Shown one piece after another: positions 6,726 to 14,980 of a stretch of 64,000 nucleotides of DNA (positions within the stretch are counted from its first letter, which is position 1; each line of letters begins with the position of its first letter). The position numbers and the translations under genes are program-made. This DNA comes from a bacterium. GTDB lineage: Bacteria > UBA8248. The notes beneath the pieces were generated by a model. The model had not been told where the DNA came from, searched no databases, and saw only the letters and a program-made list of their open reading frames with translations. The stretch lies in NCBI GenBank assembly GCA_965213625.1, contig CBDBZU010000004.1:3360001-3424000 (forward strand). Reading direction: 5' to 3'.

Positions 6726-7283
6726 GGCGCGCGATCCTCCAAATTGTGGTTATTCAACGTGTTACGGCTCATCTGTGGCGCTGTGACCCGCATTCTACGC
6801 GAGAGAGGCCCCCTGGGCCAGCCCCGCGCTCACCCCCCCGGTTACGGCTCCATATCCCCTCATATTACAACGGCTTATGCGGGGCGCACGACGCTTTTTC
6901 AAGGGCTTCCGGGCGCTCGTTTTTTTACGGAAAAACACCGGTAATTTACAGATAAACCCCGTGAATTTATCGATATTTATGGAATTGTTTTCGCCGGTTC
7001 CGGCTAGGTGATGAGCGTACGCCGCGGGCGGTGGCGGCAACAGTCGCTGTGGGACCAACCCGCAAACCTCCTCCCCTCCCCCAAGGTTGTCCTTTTCTGT
7101 TCGACGGCTTCTGACAGGCGCCGGTTCCGGGAGGCTACGAGAAATTCGATTCCTCCGCGGTGCCTGCCCGCATGAAATCCTGCCATGCGCGCGAGGCCGC
7201 CCGGTGACGCCAATTGCGGGGAAATGCGCCTTGAACCTGACCGTCCCGGGGCAGAAGCGTTCGCCGACCGGGACGGGAGAGAT

Positions 7284-7313
7284 TTGACGAAGCGCGCGCG
7301 CTCTATTTATAGT
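7284..7313 (+). promoter_or_regulatory. Putative sigma70 promoter of small protein copy 1
   Basis: TTGACG-N18-TATAGT; equivalent motif precedes all three gene copies. Confidence 0.65.
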
Positions 7314-7375
7314 CGTATGCGACAGTCATGAACGTACGCGAGGATACCGAGGGACCCACATCCCGGGAGCTACGC

Positions 7376-7675
7376 ATGACGACATTCGAAAACCTCAGCC
7401 TCATCGCCGCTTACCTGAACCTCATCGCCCACTATATTGCCCTCGCTCTCATCTACTACGGCATCCGCACCATGGAGAAGGACGAGAAAATCCGCGATGA
7501 GAAGTCAAAACGCAGGCATGCCGAGTTCATGGCTAAGTCCAGTCGCAGGCACAACGAGTTCATGACCGACTCCCACCTCAGGAAAGAGGAGTCTGATCGC
7601 AGGCACGCCGAAGCCCGGAACAGGCAAGAGGAGTCCATGGCCGCCCTGCGCGCGCTCATCGAACGGACCAGGTAA
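7376..7675 (+). CDS. Small TM + coiled-coil repeat protein, copy 1 (99 aa; upstream in-frame ATG at 7328)
   Basis: GGGAG SD before MTTFENL; hydrophobic N-terminus, (E/D)S.RRH.E.M repeats, LIERTR end; three paralogs in the window. Confidence 0.75.
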   Translation: MTTFENLSLIAAYLNLIAHYIALALIYYGIRTMEKDEKIRDEKSKRRHAEFMAKSSRRHNEFMTDSHLRKEESDRRHAEARNRQEESMAALRALIERTR

Positions 7676-7754
7676 ACGAACCCTCATCCCTCAATCGCGT
7701 CGAACCCTCATCCCTCAATCGGGTTGGACCCACGAAAACCGCTAACGCCTCTTT

Positions 7755-7798
7755 CCTCACCCTGAGTAGCCGCCATCGGCGGCGTATCGAAGGGCGAG
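7755..7798 (+). repeat. Dispersed palindromic element CCTCACCCTGAGTAGCCGCC..GGCGGCGTATCGAAGGGCG (also ~8946, ~49652, ~50793)
   Basis: Near-identical copies; the 49652 and 50793 copies are followed by an inverted partner (..TCGATAC..CTACTC.GGATGAGG). Confidence 0.85.
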
Positions 7799-7912
7799 GG
7801 GCATTGAACGCCTCGCACCTGACGAGAGGGCATCCTTCTGACTGGCAAAGACCCCCTTTCAAGGGGCTGTTGAAAAAGCCTGTTTCGTTTGGGATTGACA
7901 TTAGCCTTTGCT

Positions 7913-8152
7913 CGTCATTCCGGCGAAAGCCGGAATCCATTTTCGCCTTTGTCTTTGGCCTTTCGCCCGGACGTTCTCGCTCCCGGCGAAGAAGATACGG
8001 ACGCCGCCACATATATCCGCCTCATCCGTTCCGGATTCAGGCGCGGCAAACGCTCTCTCCTCCGGTAGCGTTTGACCTCCCGCGAGTCGGAATCAAATGC
8101 GAAAACGAAAGCAAAAATCACAAAATGGATTCCGGCTTTCGCCGGAATGACG
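7913..8152. repeat. Unit bounded by ~30-bp inverted repeats CGTCATTCCGGCGAAAGCCGGAATCCATTT (second copy 9104-9343; single hairpin ~26235)
   Basis: 7913-7943 is the reverse complement of 8122-8152; each arm is itself a hairpin. Confidence 0.88.
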
Positions 8153-8441
8153 GTGGTTTTCCTTCATCAGAGGTCAAACGCGAGTGAGGAGGGAGGGCCA
8201 GACGCGAGTGAGAAGCGAGCGTTTGACCCTTTGTCGGGGTTGTTGAAAAAGCCCTGTTTCGGTAGCTGGCGACATGATGATCCCGTAGCGGACAGGCCCC
8301 TGCGCCTGTCCGAGGCCTCCGTGCCTGTCCTGATTGCAACCATCCTGCAAAAGGACAACCACGGAGGGCAGGACAACCCCGAGGAGGGAGGGTTTGACCC
8401 CTGAAATGGGAGCTGCTCCAGCACCCCCGAGGCGCGGGGAT

Positions 8442-8471
8442 TTGACGAAGCGCGCGCTCTCTATTTATATT
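8442..8471 (+). promoter_or_regulatory. Putative sigma70 promoter of small protein copy 2
   Basis: TTGACG-N18-TATATT. Confidence 0.65.
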
Positions 8472-8533
8472 CGTATGCAACTGTCATGAACGTACGCGAG
8501 GAAAATGATCGGCCCACATCCCGTGAGCTACGC

Positions 8534-8866
8534 ATGACGACGTTCGAAAACCTCAGCCTCATCGCCGCTTACCTCAACCTCATCGCCTCCTACGGCGGCC
8601 TCGCGCTCATCTACTACGGCATCCGCGTCATGGCCAAAGGCGCTGAATTGCGCGCGGCCGACTCCGAGCACAAGCACGCCGAAACAATGAAAGAGTCTGA
8701 TCGCAGGCACGACGAAGCCATGGCCGAATCCGAACGCAGGCACAACGAGTTCATCGCCGATTCCCGCCGCAGGGATGAGGAGTCGGTCCGCAGGCACGCC
8801 GAATCCATGGCCAGGCACGAGGAGTCCATGGCGGCCCTGCGCGCGCTCATCGAACGGACCAGGTAA
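8534..8866 (+). CDS. Small TM + coiled-coil repeat protein, copy 2 (110 aa; upstream in-frame ATG at 8486)
   Basis: Paralog of 7376..7675, 11 aa longer. Confidence 0.75.
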   Translation: MTTFENLSLIAAYLNLIASYGGLALIYYGIRVMAKGAELRAADSEHKHAETMKESDRRHDEAMAESERRHNEFIADSRRRDEESVRRHAESMARHEESMAALRALIERTR

Positions 8867-9515
8867 ACGAACCCTCATCCCTCAATCGCGTCGAACCCTC
8901 ATCCCTCAATCGGGTTGGACCCACGAAAACCGCTAACGCCTCTTTCCTCACCCTGAGTAGCCGCCATCGGCGGCGTATCGAAGGGCGAGGGGCATTGAAC
9001 GCCTCGCACCTGACGAGAGGGCATCCTTCTGACTGGCAAAGACCCCCTTTCAAGGGGCTGTTGAAAAAGCCTGTTTCGTTTGGGATTGACATTAGCCTTT
9101 GCTCGTCATTCCGGCGAAAGCCGGAATCCATTTTCGCCTTTGTCTTTGGCCTTTCGCCTGGACGTTCTCGCTCCCGGCGAAGAAGATACGGACGCCGCCA
9201 CATATATCCGCCTCATCCGTTCCGGATTCAGGCGCGGCAAACGCTCCCTCCTCCGGTCGCGTTTGACCTCCCGCGAGTCGGAATCAAATGCGAAAACGAA
9301 AGCAAGAATCACAAAATGGATTCCGGCTTTCGCCGGAATGACGGTGGTTTTCCTTCATCAGGGGTCAAACCCGACCGAGGAGGGAGGGTTTGACGCGATT
9401 GATGAATGAGCGTTTGACGCGAGTGATATAGGAGCGTTTGATTTATCCCCTCCAGGATACCAATGGCTGGGGGTCAATTCCGACTGAGGAAGGAGGAATT
9501 GAATTATTCTCACAC

Positions 9516-9554: not shown

Positions 9555-9826
9555 CAATCTTGCATTGGGGTTGCCAAGTATTCTTTAATACACGTATAAA
9601 GTCAGCAACACGCGTATCAAAGATGGCTGGGAGTCAAACGCGAGTGAGAAGCGAGTGTTTGATTTATTCCCCCCTACGCCCTATAAAACTGGCTGGGGGT
9701 TACTCATTATTCCCTGCCCACACCGAGAGGACTCAAACTCTGTAGCATGGGTAGGTACAATTTGCTCCCGACGATGTAGAGCAACCAATGAGTAACCCCC
9801 AAAAAGCCTGCCCTTTCTCTTTATAA

Positions 9827-11539
9827 TTACCTGTGCGCCGCAAATGACCCGATGAAGGCGGCGTCTCCCACCGGCGCGCTCTGCTGCGTGGCGTAAAAGG
9901 TTCCCGCCACCGAACCGGGCGCCTGGGGCGAATACGTCGTCGTTATCGTACTTGTCGTCACCGGTGGAGTTTCCGTATTCGTTGTCCTTACCGTTGTTTG
10001 GGACCTTGAGACCCTCGTCATCCCAAAAAACTGGCCCTTCCAGGAGCCGCTGAAGGATTTGCCGTCAACCACGCCAATGGTGGAACCATTATTGAATTTG
10101 TCATTCCCGCTGATATCATCTCCAAGGCTCTGGTCCTGTAATTCGATGCTGCCCACCATTCGTTGCCCACCAGCGACGATGTTCGTGACCGCGCCCACGA
10201 TGCTGCCCGAGCCATCCGAACCTGCACCTGTCGGATTCTGGAACTCGGCGGTGAGCGTAACGTCCGCCGTGAAATAGCTCGTATCGCTTCCCGCGAGGTA
10301 GGCGCCGTTCGCATTCCCCGTGTAAGTGGCTGTCACATCCTGGCCGTCTTTCACAAAAGTGCTGATGGTGTTGAATCCACCAGTATCACCGCATTCTCTG
10401 ATGGTTACGGATGTTGTTCCGGTTCCGGATTCACCACTACCTTCATTACCACTACAGAAGTTTAAATCACTGGCGTTGCTTGTGGGTTGGCCCCCGTAAG
10501 CGAATGCCGTAATAGTGGAAGTACTCAAATTGTCGTTTTCCACTGTAAGCCAGATTCCGGCGATCAGATAGTCGGTATCGGGTTCATAGTCATACCGCTC
10601 GTCGTGAAGCGTATCGGGCATATCTTCCATGACGGTATTTCTTGCCCTGCTCTCTTTAGAGATGTCCGTGTAGGCGTTAACGAAGGTCGAGGTGGTGCCG
10701 TCCACTCCTGTCAGATCGAAGCCACTGGAAAGGCGGCCCGTTCCAGTGAGTGAAGGCGTCGTGCTGTCCGATACGAGACCCTCTATTCGGACCGTCTTCT
10801 GTCCGGTAACCCTGTCTGCGCCGCTCCCGATATCTGCTGGGAATTCGGCACATGGTGCAGTGCAAGCAACACGAGGATTGCCGCTGGACGGCCCGGAGTT
10901 GCCGGCCGCGCCCACGACTATGCTACCGGCTGTCAAGCCCTTAACGGCGTCGGCGAGAAGTTTATTATCTCTCAAGTGCTTGATGAGCCCTGAATTGTTC
11001 GTCAAGGCGGCCTCGTCCGCTTCACGTTGCATGCGGGCGGCAGCAACCGCGTTAACGGCGCTCTGGATGGCTGCCACAGCCGATTGCGCGGATATCAGGT
11101 CGGCGAGCGCCGCTCTCGCATCATCCAGCGCGCTCTCCGCCTCTGCAGGCGTGGTGGCCGCATCCGCCGCGTCTCTCGCATCTTCGATTTCCGTCAATTG
11201 GTTTTGCGCTTCGACTGCATTGGCGAGAGCGCTCGTTATTTGATCCGCCGTGGCGTCGGGGTGAACCTGCACCGCCGCCGCCGCCGCGCGCGCCGCTCCC
11301 TCTCGCGCCCGGGCGTTTGTTACGATGCCGTCGAGTGTATCCTGTGCATCGGCTATCAGTTCCGCATCCGTCGGCCCCGGAGCCATGCAGTCCGGGTACG
11401 TGCCGATCTGGCCCTGCGGGCATTCCATCACCATCTCATCCGCAGTACCGCCGCCACCGCCGCCGCCGCCGCAACCGGAGGCAAATGCCGCAATGCACAC
11501 GACAAGTACCGCCAATCCTGAATATCTGAGCATTTTCAT
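9827..11539 (-). CDS. Surface lipoprotein with TbpB/HpuA-like C-terminal beta-barrel
   Basis: MKMLRY signal peptide, lipobox ASGC followed by poly-Gly; Ala-rich helical stalk; ATYTGNANG, GSWKGQFFG, VAGTF, FIGSFAAHR. Confidence 0.75.
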   Translation of the reverse strand: MKMLRYSGLAVLVVCIAAFASGCGGGGGGGGTADEMVMECPQGQIGTYPDCMAPGPTDAELIADAQDTLDGIVTNARAREGAARAAAAAVQVHPDATADQITSALANAVEAQNQLTEIEDARDAADAATTPAEAESALDDARAALADLISAQSAVAAIQSAVNAVAAARMQREADEAALTNNSGLIKHLRDNKLLADAVKGLTAGSIVVGAAGNSGPSSGNPRVACTAPCAEFPADIGSGADRVTGQKTVRIEGLVSDSTTPSLTGTGRLSSGFDLTGVDGTTSTFVNAYTDISKESRARNTVMEDMPDTLHDERYDYEPDTDYLIAGIWLTVENDNLSTSTITAFAYGGQPTSNASDLNFCSGNEGSGESGTGTTSVTIRECGDTGGFNTISTFVKDGQDVTATYTGNANGAYLAGSDTSYFTADVTLTAEFQNPTGAGSDGSGSIVGAVTNIVAGGQRMVGSIELQDQSLGDDISGNDKFNNGSTIGVVDGKSFSGSWKGQFFGMTRVSRSQTTVRTTNTETPPVTTSTITTTYSPQAPGSVAGTFYATQQSAPVGDAAFIGSFAAHR

Positions 11540-11681
11540 CACTTGCCCCCTGAGGGTTACGTCCCCTTCCGGGAAAGAAGAGGGCGGGCGGTTGAAACCA
11601 GGTAAGTAAAATGAATCGTTTGCTTTGAGAACCCCCGGCCCCGGGCTCAAAGAGCCCGAGGCCAAAGGGAGTCGTGCGTTG

Positions 11682-13400
11682 TTACTGCCTGTGTGCGCCG
11701 AACGCGCCGATCAGACTCATCTTGTTGTCCGCGCTGGATGCGCCGAATGTGCCGGCAACACCCGTCGGGTGCGTGGTGTTTGCAGCGCTGCCCGAGCCGT
11801 TCGGACCGTATAGCTGACCGCCCCAGTTCCCCCTGAGGCCGGTTCCACCGAGAACGCCGTCCGTGGTGCCTGTGAACGATCCAGCTTCGCCTGCTGTATC
11901 AGCCAAGGTGGCTTTCACCAGATTCAGGGAGCCGTCAACAGCCTGTCCGGCGGCCCTGATACCCGAGATGCTTCCCGAGATTGACCCCAGCGTGGCGTTC
12001 GTTGCGCTGAGGAAGTCGACCTCGAGCGAGGCGTCCGCGTCGAAGTACTGGACCATGCCGCCCGCTGAATAGAGGCCGGTGGCGCTTCCTTCATACGAGG
12101 CATTACCCGTGATAGCTACATTCACCGTGTACGTGTCACTGCCGTACGCGAAGGCGCCTGCCTGGGCGGGATCAATTGCTATGGCAGTAGTACCATCGGC
12201 AGCTATCAGGGAGTCCCTGACGGAAGCGGTTACCCACATACCCCAAGCCATGTAGTCTTCGTCGTGACCGGGATCTTTTCCTGTGGCGGTTCGGTATGTG
12301 TATCCAGTATTCTCTACAATTTTCCCGTCTTCATCCACGCTTATAGAACATGGTGTATTGGTGGGGTCTGCACAGTAAATTTGAGCTGGAACCGCGACAT
12401 TGTTGTCAGCGGGATCCAAATTGAGCAACACTTCAAAATTGCTGCCATCGCTCGGGATATCACCCGTCAATACAGCAGACATTTCTATTGCGTCTGTTAT
12501 TTCAATTCCTGTTCCCGTATATATGTTCTTTTCAACCGACGCTTCGATGTCCGTGGTGACGACGAGATGAGTTTTCGTATTCTCGCTTGTTGTGCGAACC
12601 AAATCTGCGCCTTCGTTTCCTTTGATATGGAAACGTGAAGGCTCTTCACCCGTCCGCATTCGATTTACCTCAGCAGCACCGCCATGGTTTATCCCGAATG
12701 CTGATCCACCCGCTTTATGCGCCACGAATGGAACGTCTGTTATTCCACCACTTATCGTAACAGTGGCAGTGGTATCACTGCTTCCGCCCTGGTTGGTAAG
12801 ACCATCAGTAGTAGCAGCCACACCGGCAGCTGCAATCGCCGACCCTACGGTAGCCGAATTTGTCATTGCCTTTAGCGGATCCGAGCCATCCAGCTCGGCA
12901 TTTTCGATGTCGTCGCCGTTGAGCAGCTTGTTCGACAGGTTGATAAGCACCAGGCTGCTCATGCCAGCTGCTTCCATCGCCTTGTCGCGGGCCGTCTCGG
13001 CCGCCATCTGGTGACCCATTGCGTCTGCAGAAGTCGTGGCCGCCTGCGCCGCCGTGTTGGCGTCACCAGCCATGCTCGCGTAACCGTACGCGTTGCCGGC
13101 CGCCACGGGGTCAACCGCGCCGCCCACGGCCGCCATCGCAGCCGCTGCCGCCATCGCAGCCGCGTCCTGCGCGCCGCTCAGGGCAGCTTCTTCGGCAAGG
13201 TCAGCGGCGGAGGTGCAGGAACCGTCCGCGTTATACCGGCCGCCGGCATCCATGCATTCCGCCTGCGGGTCAGGCATCGGCATCGGCATCTCTTCTTCCA
13301 TCTCAGCCGTTCCGCCGCCGCCGCCGCAACCAGCCAGCGTCAGCGCGAAGGCCGCCGCCAGCATGAATGAAAAGATTTTATTTCTGTTGAGTTTCATCAC
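11682..13400 (-). CDS. Surface lipoprotein with TbpB/HpuA-like C-terminal beta-barrel
   Basis: AGGAGG SD; lipobox LAGC followed by poly-Gly; DYMAWGMW, ASYEGSATGLY, GNWGGQLYG, VAGTFGA, LIGAFGAHRQ. Confidence 0.8.
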   Translation of the reverse strand: MMKLNRNKIFSFMLAAAFALTLAGCGGGGGTAEMEEEMPMPMPDPQAECMDAGGRYNADGSCTSAADLAEEAALSGAQDAAAMAAAAAMAAVGGAVDPVAAGNAYGYASMAGDANTAAQAATTSADAMGHQMAAETARDKAMEAAGMSSLVLINLSNKLLNGDDIENAELDGSDPLKAMTNSATVGSAIAAAGVAATTDGLTNQGGSSDTTATVTISGGITDVPFVAHKAGGSAFGINHGGAAEVNRMRTGEEPSRFHIKGNEGADLVRTTSENTKTHLVVTTDIEASVEKNIYTGTGIEITDAIEMSAVLTGDIPSDGSNFEVLLNLDPADNNVAVPAQIYCADPTNTPCSISVDEDGKIVENTGYTYRTATGKDPGHDEDYMAWGMWVTASVRDSLIAADGTTAIAIDPAQAGAFAYGSDTYTVNVAITGNASYEGSATGLYSAGGMVQYFDADASLEVDFLSATNATLGSISGSISGIRAAGQAVDGSLNLVKATLADTAGEAGSFTGTTDGVLGGTGLRGNWGGQLYGPNGSGSAANTTHPTGVAGTFGASSADNKMSLIGAFGAHRQ

Positions 13401-13606
13401 TTTTGAGTCCTCCTAGTCTCGTGATATTAAAGAGCTTTGCATCTAACAAAACCTGAAATGTTCGGATTAGACCTCCTTTCTTTGACTTTCCGACTTTCTA
13501 TCCTTTCCGTTATCGGGCTTATTTCGTTTCATCGTTTCATCGAACCGGAACCGGAGGCGCGGCCGCCGGCCCGGACTTACGCGTCCGGGCCGGTAGCCGG
13601 CATATC

Positions 13607-13938
13607 CACGAGACTAGCGTGGGAGTCTTTTCGGGAATCATCATGGTTTGAGTCCTCTAGCCTCGCGATATAAAAACGTCTCCGGCCCGAGCCGGGTATT
13701 CCATATTCCAGGTGGAACGATTCACGAGACTGTAGAGGGATTTGCTGCGTGGTGCATCCTGGGTTGAGTCCTCTAGCCTCGTGATTTGCTGCTTCCCGGC
13801 TCTCGCCGGGCTTACCGCTTTCCTGCGCCGGGGCCTCCGCTTTTACGAACGCGAAACTCCGGGACATTTCATCGATTCACGAGACTGGAGAGGGTCTTAC
13901 GGCGTGGTGCATCGTGGGTTGAGTCCTCTAGCCTCGTG
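13607..13938 (-). promoter_or_regulatory. Array of three ~61-nt hairpins (13607-13667, 13723-13783, 13878-13938), each with SD+ATG and an 11-codon mini-ORF register
   Basis: Minus-strand 5' arm C(A/G)CGAGGCTAGAGGACTCAA, 3' arm ..AGTCTCGTG; the same 5' arm forms the real RBS at 13403-13423. Confidence 0.8.
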
Positions 13939-14278
13939 TTTGTTGCTGCTGAAGCCTGGAATCTTTCCGGGTCGTCGTCTTCCGGGCTTCGTCAAGCCAT
14001 CTGCGATTGCAGGCTGCTCCCCTTGGCTCCCGCTCTATGCGTCCTTCACGAACGAAGTCCGCGCTGCGTTCTGCGGGCGGCCCCTGGGCTGCTGCTCCCG
14101 TGTATTACTTGACATATACGATAGTGCGTCAAATTTTCCGGTTTTGTCAAGCCTTTATTTGAACTTGCGCGCGACTTGCGAATCGCGGCGGGCGGTTCAA
14201 AGATGTTGCGATTATGAAGCATCGGGGGATGGGGGTCAAACGCCTACCGGATGAAGGAGGGTTTGACGCGAGGGGGTG

Positions 14279-14422: not shown

Positions 14423-14980
14423 TTACAGGCGGGGTACGGTGTTGTACCTGTCGAACGCCCATTTCAAGGGATTGTTGCGGATGTATTCCCGGATGCTGTT
14501 CAGGTTTTCTTCGTTGCGGATAATGTGGTCGTAAAACGAGCGTTGCCACCCGAAAGCATTCTTGCTCCGGCGTTTTCGCACTTTTCGGGTTACGGATGAT
14601 TTGAACCCCTGAATGATTTTCGGCAAAACCATTTTCGAGCGGTCGATGTTTTGTCGTTTCGATTGTAGGTGGCGACCCCTCCTCGGGGTCGCCCCTCACA
14701 TATATGCGTCCCGCTCGGGGTTGTTATCCCCAACGATAATCACGATCCCGTGTAAATGATTCGGCATCACGACGTAATCATCGATGTCCGTATTCGGAAA
14801 ATGACCGGGGATTGCCAGCCAACATTCTTGCGCAATCATTCCGGTTGCATTCAACCGCATTTTCTCGTCCAAGACTTCGCCGAAGCATTGGGTGTGATTC
14901 CGCGTGCAGATTGTCACGAAATAGTATCCTTGCCGAGAATAATCACGTTCTTGAAGTCTGTTTTCCTTTCTGGATTTCAT
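14423..14980 (-). pseudogene. REP-associated tyrosine (Y1/HUH) transposase, RAYT type, with in-frame TGA at 14696-14698
   Basis: RL...DYS..GYYFVTICT, MPNHLHGI (HUH), IIQGFKS, WQRSFYDHIIRNE, EYIRNNP; both ORF halves share one frame. Confidence 0.88.

Follow-up and report, generated by a model that had tools for sequence, protein, structure and literature searches.

The 64,000-nt window analysed here (contig CBDBZU010000004.1 of assembly GCA_965213625.1, positions 3,360,001 to 3,424,000 of the forward strand; coordinates below are those of the window) comes from G000, a metagenome-assembled genome (MAG) of Nitrospinota that is 4.15 Mb in size and 96.6% complete. It holds a tandem array of three related 69-nt units on the minus strand, upstream of the open reading frame (ORF) at 13400-11682, which encodes a lipoprotein. 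Each unit joins a copy of this gene's ribosome-binding site (RBS) to a segment complementary to that site, and we relate this arrangement to its conservation, its predicted folding and the ways in which it may act on the gene.

A repeat search returned the units as one direct-repeat family of three 69-nt copies, with start-to-start spacings of 116 and 155 nt. Taking the middle unit (13718-13786) as reference copy, the distal unit (13873-13941) is 90% and the gene-proximal unit (13602-13670) 71% identical to it. All follow one layout, in which a 5′ arm, C(A/G)CGAGGCTAGAGGACTCAA, is followed by about 30 variable bases with an ATG in the loop and by a C-rich 3′ arm ending AGTCTCGTG. The 18-mer CGAGGCTAGAGGACTCAA occurs three times on the minus strand of the window against 0.03 expected, a number reached in none of 100 shuffles. 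A covariance model, R1, built from 37 units, scores the distal, middle and gene-proximal units at 81.7, 85.4 and 74.6 bits, respectively. The mini-ORFs of the first two (13912-13877 and 13757-13722) comprise 11 codons and a TGA, whereas the gene-proximal unit forms a subtype of its own, in which the stem continues beyond a bulged G and the ORF (13644-13537) reads on, TGG standing in place of TGA; here, as for all coordinates and sequences, the preliminary description was accurate. It had called the spacers between units unrelated, which holds only in part, since a hairpin of the CCCGGC...GCCGGG type stands in each, shortly before the next unit. The one before the middle unit (GCCCGGC-GAGA-GCCGGG, 13795-13811, minus strand) is kept in a four-genome alignment, and a sequence scan found the one before the gene-proximal unit (CCGGC-UCGG-GCCGG, 13672-13695, minus strand) to be followed by AGACG and a U5 run, giving it a terminator-like appearance. 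Between the array and the gene lies a large, conserved GC-rich hairpin (13560-13599, minus strand; inverted repeat I1, 17-nt arms with 88% complementarity, 6-nt loop), and upstream of the array a conserved GC-rich 5′ leader segment with predicted hairpins (13942-14120, minus strand), which shows 70-80% identity across genomes and no Rfam match.

The real translation initiation region of the gene, CACGAGACTAGGAGGACTCAA (13403-13423, minus strand), precedes a start codon that may be GTG at 13400 or ATG at 13397, and it is unique in G000 at up to 3 mismatches. With the start codon included, it reads CACGAGACTAGGAGGACTCAAAAGTGATG (13423-13395) and is a near copy of a 5′ arm; the likeness, which the preliminary description had already noticed, extends as far as the start codon and recurs in the relatives (GGACTCAA-AAGTGATGAAAC versus GGACTCAACTCATGATGAACC). 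On the minus strand, AGTCTCGTG is found only at the three units, and its complement, CACGAGACT, only at the real start region. A unit may thus be viewed as a duplicated copy of the gene's initiation region, comprising Shine-Dalgarno (SD) sequence, spacer and start codon, that would be paired to an anti-RBS 3′ arm. The real RBS was thought to have no partner arm of its own; there is indeed no copy of the 3′ arm downstream of it, but a weak local hairpin (AUCAC/GUGAU) that places the SD in the loop is predicted for the start region itself.

The gene itself (11682-13400, minus strand) encodes 572 amino acids and begins with a lipoprotein signal peptide whose lipobox is LAGCGGGGG (MKLNRNKIFSFMLAAAFALTLAGCGGGGG, read from the sequence). 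Neither Pfam (E ≤ 10) nor NCBIfam (E ≤ 0.01) has a family that matches the product, and none of 47 homologues carries a Pfam domain. An AlphaFold2 model of residues 400-572 (173 residues, 38 homologues; predicted local distance difference test score 90.2) folds into an eight-strand barrel of the TbpB/fHbp type, and the top Foldseek matches of this barrel were TbpB (4o4u_B; E 3.9e-4, template modelling (TM) score 0.51), HpuA, NHBA and fHbp, at TM scores of about 0.5. A TbpB-like surface lipoprotein, as proposed in the preliminary description, is therefore supported at the level of the fold, whereas the operon placed there is not established. The one Slam-type gene of the genome (PF04575, 94.2 bits) is located at G000:C4:1466180-1467049, a long way from the window. 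The barrel domain belongs to a multigene family that is present in 19 of the 23 genomes of the genus, with 0-21 matches per genome, 4 in G000 and up to 21 in G020. Eight of the 12 genomes that carry the array have 7-21 matches and the other four 1-5, against 0-3 in the 11 array-less genomes, counts that come from related genomes and are not independent observations. Despite this multiplicity, the array stands at only one barrel-family locus per genome.

Its distribution is equally narrow. R1 detected the array in 12 of the 23 MAGs of the genus, G000 included, each with a single array of 2-4 units, and in none of 19 genomes from eight other genera of the family. Similarly, a 621-nt array query matched 11 of the 22 other genomes of the genus, at 74-85% identity, and none of 18 genomes outside it. 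A two-arm pattern scan over one genome for each of 185,579 species returned 10 stretches, of which eight contain the real RBS and are the loci of known array genomes; the other two, L021 and L028, end before the RBS. Metagenome contigs yielded one further locus with three units, L034, a relative of G020. Two of these Nitrospinota MAGs carry names that we take to resemble those of marine sponge metagenome bins.

Around the array, conservation is confined to a block running from the promoter-like sites to the signal peptide (~14272 to ~13312), which shows 74-84% nucleotide identity to 11 other species-level genomes, so that the leader proves to be conserved as a whole. Within it, the 19-mer of the real RBS is identical in 12/12 genomes. 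For comparison, the neighbouring carbamate kinase gene is 82-88% identical to that of G000. The DNA between this gene and the block (15500-14272) does not align, short repeat matches apart; the body of the lipoprotein gene aligns in only four genomes, and there in part, and at the protein level only the first 70-90 residues are common to most genomes. By this pattern of identity, the leader is under purifying selection as one contiguous block. As the leader is nearly as conserved as a housekeeping gene and the protein is not, the comparison indicates that the constrained feature at this locus is the control of expression rather than the protein sequence.

Single divergent units were also seen in G014, at L031 (1036-1109, minus strand), L032 (671-741) and L033 (696-769), with R1 scores of 31-32 bits. 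Each precedes the RBS of a different gene by 20-80 nt; these genes bear a lipobox and are of unassigned family, and no Pfam family was found in the G014 paralogue. Two of these units keep a 12-codon ORF with a GTG start, while the third has lost the start and has a weakened SD copy and anti-SD. Since three lipoprotein-type genes of G014 each have one such unit, the unit recurs as a leader element.

Within G000, the units are not a dispersed repeat. The 18-mer has three exact copies, all at the array locus, and five matches at 3 mismatches, compared with 3 for the control; R1 found only the three units (E 1e-16 to 1e-19), the next best match having an E of 0.1. A scattered repetitive extragenic palindrome (REP) or miniature inverted-repeat transposable element (MITE), which the preliminary description named as a possible refutation, can therefore be set aside. 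REPs are dispersed elements with tens to hundreds of copies. The units resemble REPs and bacterial interspersed mosaic elements (BIMEs) in being imperfect palindromes that adjoin, in G000, a remnant of a REP-associated tyrosine transposase (RAYT), and they differ from them in occurring three times at one locus and in having no RAYT as a conserved neighbour. The remnant is a truncated, 94-aa RAYT-like ORF (14696-14980, minus strand) that matches positions 3-64 of the 146 in NCBIfam profile NF047646, that is, its N-terminal part (E 8.9e-6; 25.7 bits, the cut-off being 80); Pfam has no family for it. It sits in a ~740-nt insertion that is absent from relatives other than G013, and tblastn searches of the flanks (1.5-5 kb) placed a RAYT-like sequence close to the array of G000 and gave a weak match in G013 but nothing in the other 10 genomes, on which ground we reject the suggestion that the units are sites of a neighbouring HUH transposase. 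A different sequence is the dispersed palindrome of this genome, namely a REP/MITE-like 26-mer (GGATTCCGGC...GGAATGACG) with 63 copies at ≤3 mismatches, mostly in inverted pairs 110-215 nt apart; copies in the window lie at 7913-7938, 8127-8152, 9104-9129 and 9318-9343. The RAYT-type transposases of the genome probably have this 26-mer as their real substrate family.

A role at the DNA level could still take several forms, the units serving as REP-like RAYT substrates, as recombination sites for lipoprotein cassettes or as a CRISPR-like or attC-like array. The RAYT-like remnant speaks in its favour, as do the variation in unit number from 2 to 4 between genomes and a hypervariable gene body that belongs to a multigene family. 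Besides the copy number, the single locus and the unconserved remnant, the units are 71-90% identical rather than exact repeats, and the changes in the gene-proximal unit, described below, are compatible with G-U pairing in a manner that favours a sense-strand RNA, all of which leaves a DNA-level function very improbable in our view. An array of clustered regularly interspaced short palindromic repeats (CRISPR) specifically was rejected on the basis of only three copies and of repeats that are 71-90% identical and internally variable, cas genes not having been searched for.

Known RNA families did not account for the array either. Rfam 15 gave no match at gathering score in the whole window, and at E ≤ 1 the segment 12500-15000 yielded two chance-level matches, both outside the array, so that the units match no Rfam family. 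CsrA (PF02599) was not found in G000, in a search whose controls recovered it from E. coli, B. subtilis and T. maritima; a CsrA-bound leader or a sponge of the CsrB/RsmZ type is for now rejected.

To assess structure, we aligned the 37 units of the 12 genomes, 26 of them distal and 11 proximal. Units of G000 fold on the sense (minus) strand with -20.3, -21.4 and -19.3 kcal/mol (z-scores -2.9, -3.5 and -2.25), compared with antisense z-scores of -2.1, -1.5 and -0.65. Across the alignment, the proposed hairpin is paired in 84.9% of cells, as opposed to 36-47% when the partners are slid by 1-3 columns. Where the units do vary, the change mostly affects one side of a pair and remains compatible with G-U pairing on the sense strand. 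It had been argued from G-U pairs on one strand and A-C mismatches on the other that the mRNA strand is the one that folds, an argument that is firm for the proximal unit, for which the sense strand has, across relatives, 99 Watson-Crick pairs, 21 G-U pairs and 1 mismatch, compared with 22 mismatches for the antisense strand. In its extended stem beyond the bulged G there is also one A-U to U-A exchange, and the large hairpin at 13599-13560 has one-sided G-U changes on the sense strand only. The distal units, by contrast, cannot tell the strands apart because they have C-A mismatches on the sense strand as well (14/26 at one pair, 9/26 at another). Overall, we consider an RNA structure on the sense strand likely, though short of proof.

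The central asymmetry appears when the arms are compared with the real RBS. That the 3′ arms are complementary to the real RBS, as the preliminary description had it, holds for every unit, with predicted pairing energies of -19.5 to -28.2 kcal/mol, and the match takes in 9-11 nt of gene-specific sequence beyond the SD (CACGAGACU). At one position, all 37 5′ arms read GGC and the real RBS GAC (12/12 genomes); opposite the 3′ arm this leaves the 5′ arms with G-U in 34/37 units, G-C in 2 and G-A in 1, where the real RBS would form a Watson-Crick pair. Moreover, hardly any variation is seen at the 3′ arm positions opposite the real RBS, whereas the 5′ arms tolerate mismatches. The predicted duplex of the 3′ arm is accordingly stronger with the real RBS than with its own 5′ arm in 29/37 units (mean -24.0 versus -22.6 kcal/mol), a preference seen in 24/26 distal but 5/11 proximal units. 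In minimum-energy folds of the 759-nt leader, the real RBS pairs with a 3′ arm in 11/12 genomes, in two of them partly, and forcing it open costs 3.1-13.4 kcal/mol.

For these arms to act on the gene in cis, array and gene would have to share a transcript. Two promoter-like sites lie upstream on the minus strand. P2 (14121-14150), predicted from the sequence as TTGACA, 18 nt and CACTAT, is present as TTGACA-N18-CA(C/T)TAT in 12/12 genomes, 150-170 nt upstream of the first unit. P1 (14211-14239; TTGACC, 17 nt, CATAAT) agrees with the consensus at 10/12 positions, occurs in 5/12 genomes and is not significant alone, a consensus scan having found one site where 0.8 was expected. A transcript would thus have a leader of ~720 nt from P2 or ~810 nt from P1. 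Between these sites and the gene, no conserved intrinsic terminator was found in the 12 genomes; the hairpin with the U5 run is not one, as the U run (13695-13672) is kept in only some genomes, 5/12 having CATA before the proximal unit.

Further down the leader, an SD-like sequence, GAAAGGAGG (13472-13480, minus strand), stands without a start codon at initiation distance in 12/12 genomes, the next ATG, GTG or TTG being >25 nt downstream. It is displaced by ~4 columns in G008 and G022 in the 12-genome alignment, and in the consensus fold it is predicted to form 6 pairs with an upstream GGCCCC (~13535-13545). STAB-SD elements are 5′ stabilisers with an SD-like sequence in the leader. The startless GAAAGGAGG resembles them in this respect, although it is one small part of the leader, and a STAB-SD leaves the anti-RBS arms and the repeated decoys unaccounted for. 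Taken as a whole, the leader might work as an mRNA stabiliser or ribosome decoy, startless SDs and hairpins holding 30S subunits or blocking RNases so as to give a long-lived mRNA for an abundant surface protein, with no switch involved. The invariably present startless SD and the many stable hairpins agree with this, as does a preprint in which anti-SD-like sequences far from the RBS are reported to pair with it and hasten mRNA decay, and which thereby shows that RBS accessibility matters for stability (PMC12697547). Yet such a leader would not need 3′ arms that match the RBS 9-11 nt past the SD, nor a G-U pair in the decoys where the real site has A-U, and the decoy SDs are paired in a closed hairpin; we regard this explanation as rather unlikely.

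The mini-ORFs had been put forward as a constant feature of the unit, which they are not. An 11-12-codon ORF ending at the TGA of the arm is kept in 17/26 distal units; 7/26 have no ATG at all, and 2 more have lost the stop register. Five of the seven ATG-less units represent one conserved orthologous type in which GGCG replaces GATG, a change that improves an inner stem, and the TGA is itself part of a stem extension (UCACGAG/CUCGUGA). Some observations do favour translation: in unit 1 of both G014 and L034 the ATG is displaced by three bases without leaving the frame, one unit has TAA instead of TGA, and two of the three divergent single units of G014 retain a 12-codon frame with a GTG start. 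In G000, a short ORF with its own SD is present in all 3 units. In the proximal unit, an in-frame ATG is present in 11/11 genomes and also in the metagenome locus L034, and the ORF runs for 33-47 codons through the large hairpin, with a frame and an end that vary between genomes. It is plausible that this proximal ORF is translated; the distal ones are best seen as optional. Functional micropeptides (M-x-H-A-x-x-P-S/P-P-V-S), to which the hairpins would be secondary, could explain the retained distal ORFs, the in-frame shift of the ATG and the exchange of TGA for TAA. They fit poorly with the loss of the ATG in a whole orthologous type, with codons 2, 5 and 6 that vary freely and non-synonymously, with proximal tails that differ in frame and length, and with P-S/P-P codons near the stop that are there because the anti-SD arm is C-rich. 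A functional peptide is therefore unlikely, and one that made the hairpins a side effect very much so.

Taken together, we favour a reading in which a long, structured 5′ leader, with the array as one of its parts, controls translation in cis, through competition between decoy and real RBSs for the anti-RBS arms, and we hold it to be about evenly balanced between right and wrong. Such a leader would hold n anti-RBS arms and n+1 RBS-like partners, namely n imperfect decoys and the real RBS. Because the decoys carry the G-U pair, often with a further mismatch, an arm should prefer the real RBS at equilibrium, and the gene would then be off. During transcription, however, each arm would first be captured by the neighbouring decoy, leaving the gene on. 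Expression would be set by the partition of the arms between decoys and real RBS, and shifted by whatever occupies or melts a decoy or an arm, be it a 30S subunit on an exposed decoy, a ribosome translating the proximal ORF through an arm, temperature or another factor.

Several points weigh against this competition. We infer a single transcript for array and gene only from the promoter-like motifs, and a TAATAT or TAATGT found directly before the real RBS in 11/12 genomes could be the -10 box of a proximal promoter, from which short transcripts would escape the leader. A search for sequencing runs with this DNA returned four runs of a single study and no RNA run, a presumed RNA run containing next to none of its words. 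On average the real RBS is favoured by only 1.4 kcal/mol, with the difference running the other way in 8/37 units, minimum-energy folds of RNAs of ~760 nt are unreliable, and the mini-ORFs, as one possible means of shifting the partition, are missing or out of register in 9/26 distal units. For the proximal domain, RNAalifold settles on a consensus with the local hairpin and a small local one at the RBS rather than the long-range pairing, and the real RBS, which never varies, offers no covariation in support of its pairing with an arm. Covariation is weak for the hairpins too: two pairs changed on both sides, with a score reached by 414/500 shuffles, and the covariation term of RNAalifold for the proximal domain (12 sequences) was only -0.95 kcal/mol. 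With both tests weak, we do not claim covariation as proof of structure, which instead rests on conserved complementarity and on G-U-compatible changes.

The sequence before the real RBS also bears on a reading in trans, according to which P1 or P2 would give rise to a noncoding RNA or to processed small RNAs whose anti-RBS arms bind a short lipoprotein mRNA made from the gene's own proximal promoter and, in some genomes, paralogue mRNAs. The complementarity of the 3′ arms would serve this equally well. In G022, moreover, a second lipoprotein gene (L018, 4960-5090) with a related start region, AACGAGACCAGAGGGGACTCAA, and an identical signal peptide has no array and directly follows an intrinsic terminator and a TGnTATTAT extended -10-like site. 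On the other hand, TAATAT/TAATGT has no acceptable -35 at 16-18 nt before it, and its homologue in the units is the AUAU stem extension. Neither the single units nor the array as a whole are followed by a conserved terminator, individual units have no promoter-like site ahead of them, a hairpin hides the anti-RBS "seed", and in G000 the target 21-mer is unique, so that this genome offers no paralogous targets. On balance, we think a trans-acting RNA unlikely. One small-RNA gene per unit was rejected separately, as neither promoter- nor terminator-like sites flank the distal units and the hairpin with U5 (13695-13672) is not universal.

Temperature as the signal would make the competition for the arms a special case, an RNA thermometer with several anti-RBS sequences. 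There is precedent in meningococcal fHbp, one of the lipoproteins among the Foldseek matches, whose mRNA is described as a thermosensor with two anti-RBS sequences in the coding region (Loh et al. 2016, PMC4999090). As in thermometers of the fHbp type, the 3′ arms here are complementary to the RBS, and, on the assumption that they share an mRNA with it, more than one anti-RBS sequence would act on a lipoprotein RBS. Unlike those of fHbp, which lie in the coding region with no mention of decoy partners (PMC4999090), the 2-4 arms sit in a leader of ~700 nt, are each pre-paired with an RBS copy and extend their match 9-11 nt past the SD. In our judgement, helices with predicted energies of -20 to -27 kcal/mol are far too stable to be expected to melt over the physiological range, and these organisms have no known link to temperature, which makes a thermometer quite improbable.

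A more elaborate form of the competition is a register-shift switch. In one register, all arms would lie on their own upstream decoys, leaving the real RBS free; in the other, all would be shifted one partner downstream, with the last arm on the real RBS and the first decoy free, the two being mutually exclusive. Lipoprotein translation would then be set by an event at the 5′ end or at a decoy whose effect travels along the array; the trigger might be a 30S subunit that loads, a mini-ORF that is translated, or a ligand or protein that binds the conserved 175-nt 5′ segment. We put this version forward as a tentative one, improbable as it stands.

Other features of the window lie downstream of the lipoprotein gene in the direction of transcription. 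A second, paralogous lipoprotein gene (9827-11542, minus strand) has its own, unrelated RBS and is separated from the first by a 140-nt spacer with a hairpin. Beyond it, a tandem duplication of ~1.19 kb at 7281-9400 (copies 79-90% identical) holds paralogous plus-strand ORFs at 7328-7675 (115 aa; no Pfam family) and 8486-8866 (126 aa), as well as identical 118-aa antisense ORFs. Short runs of a repeat with a 24-nt period (CAAACGCGAGTGAG...-like) lie between this duplication and the paralogous lipoprotein gene, at 8175-8226, 9366-9441 and 9635-9662.

It is a known principle that complementary RNA can sequester an RBS, possibly with a leader ORF to relieve the block. Translational attenuation of ermC and cat and the coupling of secM to secA each use one leader ORF, a local hairpin that holds the regulated SD and a defined stalling signal. 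The array has in common with them a short upstream ORF with an SD, on which a ribosome would cover or melt the RBS-complementary segment; it departs from them in having repeated units, a complement that is 185-660 nt away from the RBS and 9/26 distal units that lack a usable ORF. Pairing between the 5′ and 3′ untranslated regions (UTRs) of icaR is reportedly an example of a long-range contact between anti-SD and RBS. More generally, distant anti-SD-like sequences have been described as pairing with the RBS, reducing translation, promoting mRNA decay and being generally selected against (Gill et al. preprint, PMC12697547). A pyrimidine-rich, anti-SD-like sequence hundreds of nucleotides from the RBS is what we see here as well; in contrast to these single antagonists, the complementarity is conserved, repeated, gene-specific and buffered by decoys. 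An array of hairpins that combine an RBS copy with an anti-RBS segment had no description in the literature searched and no Rfam family. What distinguishes it is the tandem arrangement of such hairpins, with a fixed thermodynamic bias towards the real RBS, at one locus in one genus and in front of a hypervariable lipoprotein.

If the competition for anti-RBS arms holds, the leader would be a natural case of decoy-buffered and possibly multi-step control of translation, and if the register shift were true, it would be a graded or timed translational controller of a kind undescribed in bacteria. The array would also offer a compact natural design for RNA engineering. For the organisms themselves, the array precedes a member of a rapidly diversifying family of surface lipoproteins, and its study could reveal how uncultured Nitrospinota tune the exposure of a surface antigen-like protein.

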